A stretch of DNA of 64,000 nucleotides from Lachnospirales bacterium (GCA_047973385.1 JBKEBX010000012.1:140269-204268), one strand, 5' to 3'. Shown: positions 5,560 through 11,689, counted from the first letter of the stretch. Made by a program: numbers and translations. The notes: generated from the letters alone by a model not told the origin.

Positions 5560-6393
5560 ATGCTAGATATAAAAAAAGTGCATTATCCAACTGACTATGA
5601 AGCTAAGAAAAATATAATAGAAGTTGGTCGAAGAATGTACAATAAAGGCTTTGTTGCTGCAAATGATGGTAACATAAGCTGTAAAGTAGCAAAAGATGTT
5701 TTTTGGACAACACCAACAGGCGTTTCAAAAGGATTTATGAATAATAACATGCTAGTTAAAATGAAACTTGATGGTACTGTTCTATCAGGAACACATAAGC
5801 CGTCTTCAGAAGTTAAAATGCATATGAGAGTATATGAAGAAAATCCAAATGTTACAGCTGTTGTACACGCTCATCCACCTATAGCAACTTCTTTTGCAAT
5901 TGCAGGAATAAGTCTTGATAAGGCTATTTTACCTGAAGCTGTTGTAAATCTAGGTTCTGTGCCTGTTGCAAAATATGCAACTCCAGGTAGCCATGATGTA
6001 CCTGATTCAATCGCACCATACTGCAATAGCCATAATGCAGTTTTACTTGCAAATCATGGAGCTTTAGCTTGGGGGAAAGAATTGTTTGAAGCTTATTTTA
6101 GACTTGAATCCTTAGAATATTATGCAAATGTTTTAATGTACACAGGTAGGATTATAGGTCGTGCCAACGAACTTAGTTGTAATCAAGTCGAAGAACTTAT
6201 TGAAATTAGAACTAAGCTTGGTATTTCTAGTGGTGGAATACCACCTTGTGCACTTATAGCTAGTAATACGGAAGATGTAACAAGCTCAAAGGACATTGGT
6301 ACATGTAAATCAAAATGTAAATCTGATGAAATGTCAGCTATAACTGAACTTGTTACTAAAAAAGTAATTGAGGCTTTAAGTAATGAAAAATAG
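5560..6393 (+). CDS. Class II (metal-dependent) aldolase, probable 5-(methylthio/deoxy)ribulose-1-phosphate aldolase, with a ~60-aa C-terminal extension
   Basis: Has GNIS and TPTG phosphate motifs, the catalytic Glu (SSEVKMH), the H-x-H metal ligands (VVHAHPP) and the third His (LLANHGALAWG). The extra tail ends in the amphipathic helix MSAITELVTKKVIEALS. Confidence 0.75.
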   Translation: MLDIKKVHYPTDYEAKKNIIEVGRRMYNKGFVAANDGNISCKVAKDVFWTTPTGVSKGFMNNNMLVKMKLDGTVLSGTHKPSSEVKMHMRVYEENPNVTAVVHAHPPIATSFAIAGISLDKAILPEAVVNLGSVPVAKYATPGSHDVPDSIAPYCNSHNAVLLANHGALAWGKELFEAYFRLESLEYYANVLMYTGRIIGRANELSCNQVEELIEIRTKLGISSGGIPPCALIASNTEDVTSSKDIGTCKSKCKSDEMSAITELVTKKVIEALSNEK

Positions 6394-6437
6394 ATAGATA
6401 AAAAACAGTGTGTCTAAATAATGCAGAGGTGAAAATC

Positions 6438-6755
6438 ATGGCAGTTGGTTTTTTAGAAACGGCAGGTTATGGAGTTGCCATAGTTAGTATTGATAAAGCT
6501 TGTAAAGGGGCAAATGTTGAAATATTAGGCATTGATACTATAAATCCTAAAGATAAAAATGGGTTTATACCTTTATCTGTACAAGTTAAGTTTTCAGGTG
6601 AAATTTCTGAAGTTAAAATAGCTTTGGAAATAGCTAAGACTGAGGCTTTAAAGTATAACAAAGAAAATGAAATTGTTGCAAGGCTTATTGGTGATGCAAG
6701 TTCTCAAACTATTGAAATTTGTAAAATAAGCAAAGTGAGAATTAATCAGAGGTGA
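6438..6755 (+). CDS. Divergent BMC-H shell protein (single BMC domain, non-canonical pore loop)
   Basis: MAVGFLETAGYGVAIVSIDKACKGANVEI has BMC-domain topology. The canonical KIGSG loop is replaced by INPKDKNGFIPLS. Start at ATG 6438 after AGAGGTG. Confidence 0.7.
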   Translation: MAVGFLETAGYGVAIVSIDKACKGANVEILGIDTINPKDKNGFIPLSVQVKFSGEISEVKIALEIAKTEALKYNKENEIVARLIGDASSQTIEICKISKVRINQR

Positions 6756-6758
6756 TTT

Positions 6759-7031
6759 ATGGCATTAGGATTCATAGAAGCGATAGGGTTAACGGCATCA
6801 GTAGAAGCAGTCGACGCTATGATAAAAGCGGCAGATGTTGAGTTTATAGGTACAGAAAAAATAGGGTCTGGACTTGTTAGTGTTGTTGTAAAAGGCGAAG
6901 TTAGTGCAGTAGAGATAGCTGTGGAAGTTGGTTGTAAGGTTGTAGAAAATATAGGCGAGTTAGTAGCTTATAACGTTATGTCAAAGCCTGAGGATGTTAT
7001 AGAAAGTATTTTCAAAAATGGTAGTCTATGA
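6759..7031 (+). CDS. BMC-H shell protein (PduA/EutM-like hexamer)
   Basis: [51 protein letters not shown] matches the canonical PF00936-type pattern. Confidence 0.9.
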   Translation: MALGFIEAIGLTASVEAVDAMIKAADVEFIGTEKIGSGLVSVVVKGEVSAVEIAVEVGCKVVENIGELVAYNVMSKPEDVIESIFKNGSL

Positions 7032-9419: not shown

Positions 9420-9457
9420 TGTTTTAAACATGCAATTTTAAAGGTGGTGAATGGTTT

Positions 9458-10156
9458 ATGGTTTATAGCGATAGAGTTAATTATATGAGAGATTTTGAAG
9501 CTAAAGAAAAGATTATAAGTATATGTAAGGATTTATCTGATAAAGGATATATCATTGGTGAAGACGGTAGTATTAGTGTTAGAGTTTCAAAAGATACTAT
9601 TTGGATTACTCCAAAATCCTTTAATTTGAGTATGCTAACATTAGATAAATTGTTGAAAATTAATTTAGAAGGAAAGTTTTTGCAAGGCTCTTATAAATTA
9701 TATAAAAATGATTTTCTTCCAGAAGAATTGTCATATCATATAAACATATATAAGGAAAATTCTGAAATTGCTTCAGTAATACATTCTTATCCACCAAATG
9801 TTATTATTTATTCTATGAATGAAACAGATATTGAACAGCAAAGCTTTTCAAAACCAACATCTAGACTTGGTAAAATACCTTATGTATCACTTTACGGAAA
9901 TGATGATAGCTGTGTTTTAAAAAGTGAAATCGTAAATAGTTACAATGGTGTTATATTAAAAGAGTTGGGTTGTTTTATGTGGGGAGAAAATATTTTAAAA
10001 GCATATTCTAACCTTGATATTATTGAATACACAACAAAAATACTCAATCAAGTTAAGAAAAGTAAATGTATTAAATGTTCTTGTAAAAAAGAAGATAAAG
10101 AAGAAAGAAAAATTAGCTCAAATTTAAAAGGTGTTACAAAAATTGTAAAGCCATAA
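9458..10156 (+). CDS. Class II aldolase-fold paralog with degenerate active site (probable non-catalytic) and a Cys/Lys-rich C-terminal tail
   Basis: It aligns with the 5560..6393 aldolase but carries changes at key motifs. HAHP becomes HSYP, ANHG becomes KELG, GNIS becomes GSIS and TPTG becomes TPKS. The tail is KKSKCIKCSCKKEDKEERK. Confidence 0.7.
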   Translation: MVYSDRVNYMRDFEAKEKIISICKDLSDKGYIIGEDGSISVRVSKDTIWITPKSFNLSMLTLDKLLKINLEGKFLQGSYKLYKNDFLPEELSYHINIYKENSEIASVIHSYPPNVIIYSMNETDIEQQSFSKPTSRLGKIPYVSLYGNDDSCVLKSEIVNSYNGVILKELGCFMWGENILKAYSNLDIIEYTTKILNQVKKSKCIKCSCKKEDKEERKISSNLKGVTKIVKP

Positions 10157-10237
10157 TTAATTGTAAAGGGTTGAGATGGCAATGCCTAAATATTAAAAAA
10201 ATGGTACATTTTCTAATAAATAGTTAAGGGGTGCATT

Positions 10238-11689
10238 ATGGATATAAATTCAAATGATATAGAAATGATTGTTAAGCAAGTTGTTGAAAAGTTAAGTAGT
10301 GAACCTAAAGTTGCATCTTGTAGTAGTCAAGTTTCAAAGGATGATTGTCGTAATCGTGATAATTATGGAGTTTTTGAAGATGTTGAAGATGCAATTGAAG
10401 CAGCTGTTATTGCTCAAAAAAATTACATAAAAAATTATAAAATACATGAACGTCAACAATTTATTGATGCTATTAGAGTTGCTAGTAGAAAAAACGTTGA
10501 AACTCTTGCAAAAATGGTTAGAGATGAAACAAACATGGGTAGATATGAAGATAAAATAGAAAAGCATTTAGCTGTAATAAACAAAACTCCTGGTACTGAG
10601 CATTTAACAACGGATGCAATTTCAGGTGATTATGGTTTAATGATTGAAGAATATGCTCCTTTCGGTGTTATTGGTTCTATTACACCTTCAACAAACCCAA
10701 CAGAAACAATCATAAATAATACAATTAGTATGATTGCAGGTGGTAATGCGATTGTTTTTAATGTACATCCTAGTGCAAAAAAATCATCAGCTTATTGTAT
10801 TCAACTATTAAATAAAACCATAGTTAATGTTGGTGGGCCACCTAATCTGTTAACTATGGCAAAAGAACCAACTATGGATAATGTTACTAAAATAACAGCT
10901 AATCCTAACATTAGACTTATGGTTGGAACAGGTGGTACGGCTATGGTTGATTCGTTACTAAGATTAGGTAAAAGAACTATTGGAGCAGGGGCTGGAAATC
11001 CGCCTGTTATTGTTGATGAAACGGCGAATATAGATATAGCGGCTAGTGAAATTTATAAAGGTGCTTCTTTTGATAATAACTTATTATGTATTGCAGAAAA
11101 GGAAGTGTATGCAGTTGAAAAAATATATGACAAACTTGTTAAGGGACTGATTAATGAAGGTGCATTTATGCTAAACAGTTCTCAAGTTGAAAAAGCTCTT
11201 AACACAGTATTTAAATATAATAATGGTAAATATTTTGCTGATAAACAATGGGTAGGAAAAGATGCGTCTAAAATTCTTGATGCAATTGGTGTGATGGATA
11301 ACTATGGCAATAAAAGTAAGTTGATTATTTGTGAAGTGCCTTATGACCATCCATTTGTAGAGGTTGAACAACTTATGCCGATTTTACCAATTGTACGTTG
11401 CAAAAACTTTAAGGAAGCAGTAGGATATGCAGTTATCGCAGAAGAGGGAAATAGACATACAGCTTCAATTTTCTCAACAAATGTTGACAACATGACATAT
11501 TACGCTAAGAAAATTGAGACTACTATTTTTGTGAAAAACAGTGCTACTTTAGCTGGACTGGGAATTAATGGGGAAGGTCATTGTAGTATGACTATTGCAG
11601 GTCCAACAGGTGAAGGTATTACAAGTGCTAGAAGCTTTACTAGAAGAAGAAGATGTATGCTTGGTGACGGTGGCTTTAGAATTATTTAG
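10238..11689 (+). CDS. CoA-acylating aldehyde dehydrogenase (PduP/EutE family)
   Basis: Catalytic region FDNNLLCIAEKE, PduP/EutE-like length, and the N-terminal amphipathic helix DIEMIVKQVVEKL followed by a linker. Confidence 0.88.
   Translation: MDINSNDIEMIVKQVVEKLSSEPKVASCSSQVSKDDCRNRDNYGVFEDVEDAIEAAVIAQKNYIKNYKIHERQQFIDAIRVASRKNVETLAKMVRDETNMGRYEDKIEKHLAVINKTPGTEHLTTDAISGDYGLMIEEYAPFGVIGSITPSTNPTETIINNTISMIAGGNAIVFNVHPSAKKSSAYCIQLLNKTIVNVGGPPNLLTMAKEPTMDNVTKITANPNIRLMVGTGGTAMVDSLLRLGKRTIGAGAGNPPVIVDETANIDIAASEIYKGASFDNNLLCIAEKEVYAVEKIYDKLVKGLINEGAFMLNSSQVEKALNTVFKYNNGKYFADKQWVGKDASKILDAIGVMDNYGNKSKLIICEVPYDHPFVEVEQLMPILPIVRCKNFKEAVGYAVIAEEGNRHTASIFSTNVDNMTYYAKKIETTIFVKNSATLAGLGINGEGHCSMTIAGPTGEGITSARSFTRRRRCMLGDGGFRII

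Follow-up and report, generated by a model that had tools for sequence, protein, structure and literature searches.

Candidate encapsulation peptides on the aldolase, PduL and aldehyde dehydrogenase of a PVM-like microcompartment locus from a Lachnospirales genome

The DNA analysed in this study is a stretch of 64,000 nt (the window) from a Lachnospirales metagenome-assembled genome, and all positions are counted from its first letter. Positions 97-13569 (+) form a single co-directional gene array, in which genes of bacterial microcompartment (BMC) shell proteins stand among those of metabolic enzymes. The class II aldolase (277 aa, the signature enzyme; 5560-6393, +), the PduL phosphotransacylase (7634-8287, +) and the CoA-acylating aldehyde dehydrogenase (AldDH; 10238-11689, +) each carry a terminal segment outside the catalytic domain. 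An initial annotation of this locus had read these segments as encapsulation-peptide-like helices that mark the three enzymes as cargo of the shell, and all the helix strings it quoted are present at the genes it named.

The aldolase catalytic domain was assigned to residues 1-215 (5560-6204, +) from Pfam and PDB homologues. The Pfam Aldolase_II domain covers residues 18-191, and solved class II aldolases of 207-222 residues in the PDB align to residues 11-215 only. The Zn-ligand histidines H103, H105 and H166, together with E84, are invariant in 38 homologues. The protein had been described as about 60 aa longer than typical class II aldolases, and it indeed has a C-terminal extension of 62 residues (55-62 beyond its relatives). 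The extension was said to consist of a Gly/Ser/Cys-rich linker followed by an amphipathic segment, and the sequence, AlphaFold2 and the periodicity of the orthologues agree with this description. The linker, residues 216-255 (IRTKLGISSGGIPPCALIASNTEDVTSSKDIGTCKSKCKS; 6205-6324, +), lies outside every solved homologue, is rich in Ser, Gly, Thr, Lys and Cys, and holds C230, C249 and C253. The encapsulation-peptide-like helix occupies residues 256-274 (MSAITELVTKKVIEALS, equal to DEMSAITELVTKKVIEALS; 6325-6381, +). Its hydrophobic face includes I261, V265, V269, I270 and L273. In the AlphaFold2 model built with 38 homologues, a short helix (residues 207-219) leads into a disordered stretch (220-254), after which a second helix runs from 255 to 274.

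The terminal helix is the most conserved portion of the aldolase tail. The 47 non-identical tails from BMC-linked loci share the helix consensus [DE]x[IL][IV]xE[IV][TV][KR][KR]V[LM]Exx[LY]. The 120 closest aldolase homologues are all 263-350 residues long, and in nearly all of them this helix pattern forms the C-terminus, behind widely differing linkers. The linker differs in both length and sequence among homologues, GGxPPC excepted; in the whole tail of linker plus helix (45-119 residues), little is conserved beyond GGxPPC and CxC.

PduL and AldDH carry their helices at the N-terminus. The catalytic part of PduL (7715-8287, +) was identified by the Pfam PTAC domain at residues 29-203 and by NCBIfam NF011652, over its cutoff, and it aligns with PDB 5cuo. 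The proposed helix does precede it: the PTAC domain begins at residue 28-29, and the encapsulation-peptide-like helix takes up residues 3-21 (NEELVEYISQLVLNELKSL; 7640-7696, +). The pattern LxxxIxxxV[VL]xxL is kept in 37 orthologues with helical periodicity. Single-sequence AlphaFold2 also placed a helix at residues 3-20 of PduL, but the model is unreliable (predicted local distance difference test score, pLDDT, 32). The catalytic part of AldDH (10352-11689, +) scored 636 bits against NCBIfam NF011927 (cutoff 403), and its best solved relatives are 5jfl of R. palustris and 4c3s. An N-terminal helix followed by a Ser-rich linker had been reported for this enzyme, and both are there, ahead of a catalytic domain that begins at about residue 39-47. 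The helix spans residues 6-19 (NDIEMIVKQVVEKL; 10253-10294, +), outside the Aldedh domain, and SSEPKVASCSSQVSKDDCRNRD follows it. The Ser-rich linker, read from the sequence, spans residues 20-38 (10295-10351, +) and is variable among orthologues. The alignment with the R. palustris aldehyde dehydrogenase 5jfl takes in the helix, which pairs with the N-terminal region of that protein; with the 445-residue chain 4c3s, the alignment starts only at residue 39 of AldDH. The pattern x[DE][IV]xxIVxxVLxx[MLI] is kept in 43 orthologues, again with helical periodicity.

The initial annotation had asked for a helix and secondary-structure check. It showed a periodicity peak of hydrophobicity at 90-100 degrees/residue, which is alpha-helical, in all three families (38-48 non-identical orthologue segments per family), and an AlphaFold2 helix of low confidence in the aldolase. 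The hydrophobic pattern of the helix is conserved in the aldolase, AldDH and PduL alike, and the linkers vary freely. A survey of 1065 encapsulation peptides (PduP, PduD, PduL, EutC, EutE and others) found a terminal amphipathic helix of about 15-18 residues and a variable hydrophilic linker as common features (Aussignargues et al. 2015, PMC4594438). Its carriers include those seen here, with the peptide at the C-terminus of class II aldolases, at the N-terminus of PduL-type phosphotransacylases and at the N- or C-terminus of aldehyde dehydrogenases (PMC4594438). Judged by sequence, the terminal helices of the window appear to be ordinary encapsulation peptides, of the kind already catalogued for class II aldolases, PduL and AldDH. 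We consider it quite probable that the three segments are the encapsulation peptides of a metabolosome like that of the Planctomycetes/Verrucomicrobia microcompartment (PVM), each made of an amphipathic helix of 14-19 residues and a flexible, poorly conserved linker. The initial annotation regarded targeting by such helices as established for PduP, PduL and the aldolase. This is right for PduP, for which mutagenesis and encapsulation assays exist, but too strong for the aldolase, whose targeting is a sequence-based prediction (Aussignargues et al. 2015).

The aldolase tail was compared across 80 species-level genome loci, with aldolase relatives 52-81% identical, from a search built on 11 sequences. 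The loci were scored for shell genes, AldDH, PduL, MtnK and MtnA. A comparison of orthologues from BMC and non-BMC clusters had been suggested earlier, and it showed that the tail tracks shell genes strongly, not absolutely. When a locus counts as BMC-linked by its shell, AldDH or PduL genes, the aldolase always (45 of 45) carries a tail of 45-119 residues with an amphipathic helix at its end. The terminal helix is absent in 26 of the 35 aldolases that have no BMC core gene in the fetched locus (tails 5-56 residues, mostly <30). Most helix-less aldolases sit in MtnK/MtnA or MtnA-only clusters. The entire tail is IRSNLKH in two that are 70% identical to the query and lie in transporter-MtnK-MtnA-aldolase clusters (L007, L008). 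The nominal Fisher p value of ~1e-9, for which the regular expression counted four BMC-linked tails as negative, gives the direction only, since the loci are phylogenetically non-independent. The regular expression itself provides rough counts; four clear helices (L012, L019, L020, L024) escaped it, and the MtnK C-terminus would count as a hit. The positions of the extensions, the periodicity and conservation of the helices, their association with shell genes and the family identities of the enzymes are all direct observations.

The genes of the MtnK-type kinase (3228-4448, +), the MtnA-type 1-phosphate isomerase (4460-5542, +) and the class II aldolase are adjacent at 3228-6393. MtnK scored 416 bits against the NCBIfam equivalog TIGR01767 (cutoff 275) and MtnA 400 bits against TIGR00512 (cutoff 279); both are without a terminal extension and are predicted to be cytosolic. 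The Fe-dependent alcohol dehydrogenase (Fe-ADH; 12418-13569, +), identified by the Pfam Fe-ADH domain, has no targeting helix. MtnK residues 17-394 of 407 align with residues 17-385 of the 397-residue B. subtilis MtnK, MtnA residues 15-352 of 360 align with B. subtilis MtnA (2yrf), and Fe-ADH residues 14-380 of 383 align with non-BMC alcohol dehydrogenases, an extension being absent in its orthologues too. The statement that MtnK, MtnA and the alcohol dehydrogenase show no comparable terminal helix is therefore correct as regards extensions, which none of them has, but MtnK does end in an amphipathic helix. This helix has a hydrophobic moment of 0.60, against 0.38 for the aldolase tail, and it is part of the conserved fold, with the same form in non-BMC orthologues. 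Because a fold helix is more amphipathic than the aldolase tail, the distinguishing mark is an extension plus linker, not amphipathicity. Hydrophobic moment as a lone detector was rejected, as internal helices and the native MtnK C-terminus outscore the aldolase tail. The termini of MtnK, MtnA, the alcohol dehydrogenase and the solute-binding-fold protein described below are unchanged with or without shell genes in the locus. The alcohol dehydrogenases of metabolosomes are usually taken as lumenal, carried in through an interaction with AldDH (Aussignargues et al. 2015, PMC4594438). By analogy, the Fe-ADH of the window could enter the shell in this way, or it could be cytosolic.

Four BMC-H shell genes follow the aldolase at 6408-6755, 6759-7031, 7028-7321 and 7352-7624 (all +). 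The first was identified by the Pfam BMC domain and the others were recognised by translation; used as phmmer queries, the remaining BMC-H genes recover shell genes in related loci. A fifth BMC-H gene (11708-12127, +; Pfam BMC at residues 54-129) has a 50-residue N-terminal extension. That extension is rich in Lys, Thr and Asn, and the counterpart in the related locus L085 is shorter and rich in Lys and Glu. The BMC-P vertex protein (12151-12405, +) has EutN-type homologues at the same position in related loci. The shell complement is thus five BMC-H, one BMC-P and no tandem-domain BMC-T. Upstream of 3228, the array starts at 97 with the end of a ribose-type periplasmic binding protein gene, followed by ATP-binding cassette (ABC) ATPase and permease genes (all +). 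The alignment of orthologues (MSxFxxYFLMK) places the MtnK start at ATG 3228, not at TTG 3183 of the mechanical open reading frame, so the 30-nt overlap with the permease gene in the open reading frame list is not real. No fucose or rhamnose kinase or isomerase was found in the locus. Recent horizontal transfer was considered and rejected, as there is no compositional signal; the GC content of the locus is 29-34%, like the rest of the window. Downstream in the window lies a 3-hydroxybutyryl-CoA dehydrogenase gene (13922-14764). In three related loci a Pyr_redox_2 enzyme (CoA-disulfide reductase/NADH oxidase-like) and a two-subunit CoA-transferase follow the solute-binding protein gene (L001 15987-18931, L003 16588-19732, L085 11182-14065). 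These genes are absent from the window, and none of their products has a targeting helix.

Two further genes lie between PduL and AldDH. The protein at 8313-9419 (+) has the solute-binding fold of the Pfam family SBP_bac_1 without a signal peptide, and no targeting helix was seen in it. It begins MxxLKVLAV in all orthologues. Within the 80-locus survey its gene is confined to BMC-linked loci (10 of them), and L001-L003 and L085 have it as well; the shell-linked occurrences are all MtnK/MtnA loci. The protein has no solved relative in the PDB and no NCBIfam match. The gene at 9458-10156 (+) encodes a degenerate aldolase paralogue, Ald2, recognised by alignments. Only one of the three Zn-ligand histidines remains; the other two have changed (H to Y, and H to L or L/N), so Ald2 is probably inactive. 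Its tail stops before any terminal helix, just after the motif LKGVTKIVKP, the equivalent of the linker motif GVTPLVRP of long-tailed aldolases. No helix relic was found downstream of the Ald2 stop codon. A homologue search returned the query alone; an orthologue was found through gene context in the closest related locus, L085 (14119-14940), and it bears a C-terminal targeting-like helix (LISEIVLQVTKKLKEL). Ald2 could be a scaffold or a hetero-oligomer partner.

The aldolase also has a characteristic pair of cysteines. Cys207 (6178-6180) and Cys230 (6247-6249) occur together in 40 of the 45 shell-linked and 3 of the 35 unlinked orthologues. C249 and C253 lie at 6304-6318, and most linked tails hold a CxC motif (SCGCSVS, GCGCGG); CGC is also found in a few AldDH N-terminal linkers. 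Aldolase linkers have the highest cysteine content of the tabulated classes of encapsulation peptides, 5.5% (Aussignargues et al. 2015, PMC4594438), and fixed cysteines at two positions of BMC-linked aldolases are not described in that survey. The pair might bind a metal, form a disulfide or cross-link cargo.

MtnK and MtnA, both over their equivalog cutoffs and adjoining a class II aldolase, make up the gene set of the dihydroxyacetone phosphate (DHAP) shunt. In this pathway of 5-deoxyribose salvage (DrdK-DrdI-DrdA, MtnK-MtnA-Ald2), the products are DHAP and acetaldehyde or 2-methylthioacetaldehyde (Beaudoin 2018; PMC10986504). The aldolase of the window is far under the FucA and RhaD cutoffs, and its match to the solved DrdA (6btd) reaches only E = 3e-20. 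An identity as MtnB dehydratase was rejected at 93 bits against a cutoff of 137; the enzymes downstream process aldehydes. Aldolase orthologues at 60-70% identity occupy plain MtnK-MtnA or MtnA-only clusters. The adjacency of MtnK, MtnA and the aldolase was observed in at least 17 shell-linked loci with a ribose-type transporter (Clostridia, Bacilli and a treponeme), and most unlinked orthologous loci also show it. The gene order transporter-MtnK-MtnA-aldolase-AldDH-shell-PduL recurs in Proteocatella, Anaerocolumna, Hungatella, Acetivibrio, Bacillus-group genera and a treponeme. Natural fusions of aldolase and MtnA also exist: P0128 (L086 655-2430) has 591 residues, with Aldolase_II and IF-2B confirmed by Pfam, and P0183, read from the sequence, has 587. 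These fusions suggest a link of this aldolase clade to MtnA and the DHAP shunt.

The locus resembles a known type of microcompartment. PVM-like loci (Axen et al. 2014; Sutter et al. 2021) contain, as here, a class II aldolase (PF00596), AldDH, PduL, five BMC-H, one BMC-P and no BMC-T. By shell complement and enzyme set, the window appears to match this catalogued PVM-like type. PVM-like is the type that the catalogue gives to loci of Gracilibacillus, Hungatella and Bacillus selenitireducens, and the shell counts of B. selenitireducens equal those of the window. Our survey holds Gracilibacillus and Hungatella loci, from species or strains other than those of the catalogue, with the same gene order. 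The catalogue texts give the PVM-like substrate as fucose/rhamnose-like or as an unspecified "sugar derivative", and the list of hidden Markov models contains no IF-2B/MtnA model. The window differs from the catalogue's description in being flanked by MtnK, MtnA and a ribose-type ABC transporter, and its gene order is rearranged, AldDH coming after PduL, the solute-binding-fold gene and Ald2. It is distinct from the strict PVM, which has a BMC-P triplet and fucose/rhamnose genes and belongs to Planctomycetes/Verrucomicrobia; here there are one BMC-P, MtnK/MtnA neighbours and a Lachnospirales (Firmicute) host.

The proposed chemistry is likewise related to that of described systems. In the PVM of Planctopirus limnophila and in the glycyl radical enzyme microcompartment GRM5, an encapsulated class II aldolase splits a ketose-1-phosphate into DHAP and an aldehyde, which AldDH and phosphotransacylase then process, as is proposed here. 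The PVM and GRM5 convert 6-deoxyhexoses to lactaldehyde, the PVM has three BMC-P and GRM5 adds a glycyl radical enzyme, whereas the window has a single BMC-P, lacks a glycyl radical enzyme and is predicted from its genes to use a 5-deoxypentose pathway. The operons of the DHAP shunt keep kinase, 1-phosphate isomerase and class II aldolase together, often with a sugar transporter, and the window does the same. The described shunt systems differ in being cytosolic three-gene clusters with tail-less aldolases (e.g. L007, L008). E. coli with the cytosolic shunt cannot ferment 5-deoxyribose, owing to ATP and redox limits. With AldDH, PduL and the alcohol dehydrogenase in a shell, disproportionation of the aldehyde there would address this very limit, adding to the ATP yield and balancing redox. 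A full-text search of the literature found no paper linking microcompartments with the DHAP shunt, 5-deoxyribose or methylthioribose, though prior notice is possible, North et al. 2020 and the locus diagrams of the catalogue having been outside the search. In the single co-mention, for A. woodii, the kinase is said to have no relation to the BMC.

We infer the targeting function of the helices, the location of each enzyme, the substrate and the metabolites that cross the shell as follows. The sugar would be imported by the ribose-type ABC transporter, and cytosolic MtnK and MtnA would convert a 5-deoxy- or 5-methylthio-pentose to the ketose-1-phosphate. The hydrophobic face of each helix would bind shell hexamers and/or other helices during assembly, by which the aldolase, AldDH and PduL would reach the lumen. 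With the aldolase step enclosed, the substrate crossing the shell would be the ketose-1-phosphate made by MtnA; it would enter, be cleaved by the aldolase, and the DHAP would exit. The aldehyde (acetaldehyde or 2-methylthioacetaldehyde) would be trapped inside and converted to acyl-CoA and then acyl-phosphate, and the Fe-ADH would regenerate NAD+ by reducing part of the aldehyde. The passage of ketose-1-phosphate inward and DHAP outward seems reasonable, as it parallels the PVM model. The pore loop of the third BMC-H (BMC3, 7028-7321) is basic, KRLGGR, and conserved as [KR][KR]LGG[RK] in related loci versus the usual KIGSG. We conjecture that such a loop would suit the passage of phosphate esters.

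Several observations weigh against this interpretation. The confidence of AlphaFold2 at the aldolase tail helix is low (pLDDT ~50-57), as expected of a detached helix, and the hydrophobic moment of that helix, 0.38, is modest. The aldolase reaches no NCBIfam equivalog cutoff, so its substrate is assigned from gene context alone. MtnK and MtnA, though they have no targeting helix, might conceivably be co-encapsulated by protein-protein binding. P0125 (241 aa), a BMC-adjacent relative, is without the terminal helix, and two BMC-associated aldolases have likewise been reported without one (Aussignargues et al. 2015, PMC4594438). Finally, a helix-like tail is also found on 9 of the 35 unlinked aldolases, although no BMC gene lies within 10 kb; for six of these the flanks are complete (L016, L025, L030, L031, L033, L036). 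The genomes with a tailed aldolase and no shell gene nearby include Cytobacillus oceanisediminis CGMCC 1.10115, Paenibacillus alvei TS-15, Christensenella tenuis and Marseille-P2438. Two of the nine are from Christensenella and Paenibacillus alvei, whose relatives appear in the published catalogue with other types of BMC locus, and these aldolases may be targeted to a shell encoded elsewhere in the genome. The locus of Cytobacillus oceanisediminis (L025 5570-12230) contains MtnK, MtnA, an inserted subtilase, an aldolase with a helix-like tail but without the cysteine pair and then Pyr_redox_2; shell, AldDH and PduL genes are all missing from it. It looks like a BMC locus that lost its shell block, because Pyr_redox_2 directly follows the aldolase there and follows the shell block in complete loci.

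The conserved helix face admits other roles. It is possible, if somewhat doubtful, that the helices serve mainly as glue between cargo proteins, bundling to condense the core before the shell closes and not docking one to one on the shell. The hydrophobic spacing is the same in all three helices, the Cys-rich linkers particular to BMC-linked aldolases could cross-link cargo, and an aggregation model has been proposed (Aussignargues et al. 2015, PMC4594438). The same paper, however, reports helix-face residues of PduP mapped as needed for encapsulation and the proposed binding of the helix to the C-terminal helices of PduA/PduJ. The glue role and the docking role are not mutually exclusive, and the present data do not separate them. 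There is very little probability that the aldolase tail is an oligomerisation or regulatory extension, such as a Cys-based metal or redox module, that merely co-occurs with shells. Several unlinked orthologues do retain the helix, and shell linkage is followed even more closely by the Cys207/Cys230 pair than by the helix; yet within the tail conservation is highest in the helix, which resembles the PduL and AldDH patterns of the same loci and is missing from the 26 unlinked orthologues.

The assignment of substrate and compartment has alternatives as well. The whole shunt could be lumenal, with MtnK and MtnA carried in through the aldolase and the free sugar or the aldose-1-phosphate crossing the shell, which we regard as unlikely. 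The alcohol dehydrogenase illustrates that cargo may go without a helix of its own, and the aldolase-MtnA fusions that both enzymes can act as one unit. These fusions, however, end in an ordinary MtnA C-terminus without a terminal helix, MtnK would require ATP inside the shell, and neither MtnK nor MtnA can be told apart in loci with and without BMC genes. A lumenal shunt would also depart from the PVM model, in which sugar phosphorylation takes place outside the shell. A fucose/rhamnose-type organelle is assumed in the literature for PVM-like loci, and distant tailed aldolases (52-56% identical, e.g. L066) do sit in shell loci without MtnK or MtnA. For the window it is nevertheless very unlikely that the aldolase cleaves fuculose-1-phosphate or rhamnulose-1-phosphate next to incidental MtnK and MtnA neighbours, given the widespread MtnK-MtnA-aldolase adjacency with and without shell genes, the aldolase-MtnA fusions, the failure of the aldolase at the FucA and RhaD cutoffs, and a locus in which kinases and isomerases of fucose and rhamnose were sought and not found. 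The reading we prefer has the kinase and isomerase in the cytosol and the aldolase, PduL and AldDH inside the shell.

The helices themselves extend the standard rules of encapsulation peptides to one more locus. They aid annotation by supplying three candidate targeting tags and would not surprise a specialist. The surrounding locus is of more note, as it points to a DHAP-shunt metabolosome. We put the chances at about even that the Firmicute PVM-like BMCs, including this one, are DHAP-shunt metabolosomes for 5-deoxyribulose-1-phosphate or methylthioribulose-1-phosphate and not fucose/rhamnose organelles. The acyl-phosphate and alcohol formed inside would then give anaerobes their ATP and redox balance, and the BMC-specific cysteine pair of the aldolase (C207/C230, often with the linker CxC) could be a metal or disulfide switch in cargo packing. 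This suggests that the widespread PVM-like compartment may serve the catabolism of the by-product sugars of S-adenosylmethionine. If true, this would offer strict anaerobes a way to grow on 5-deoxyribose.

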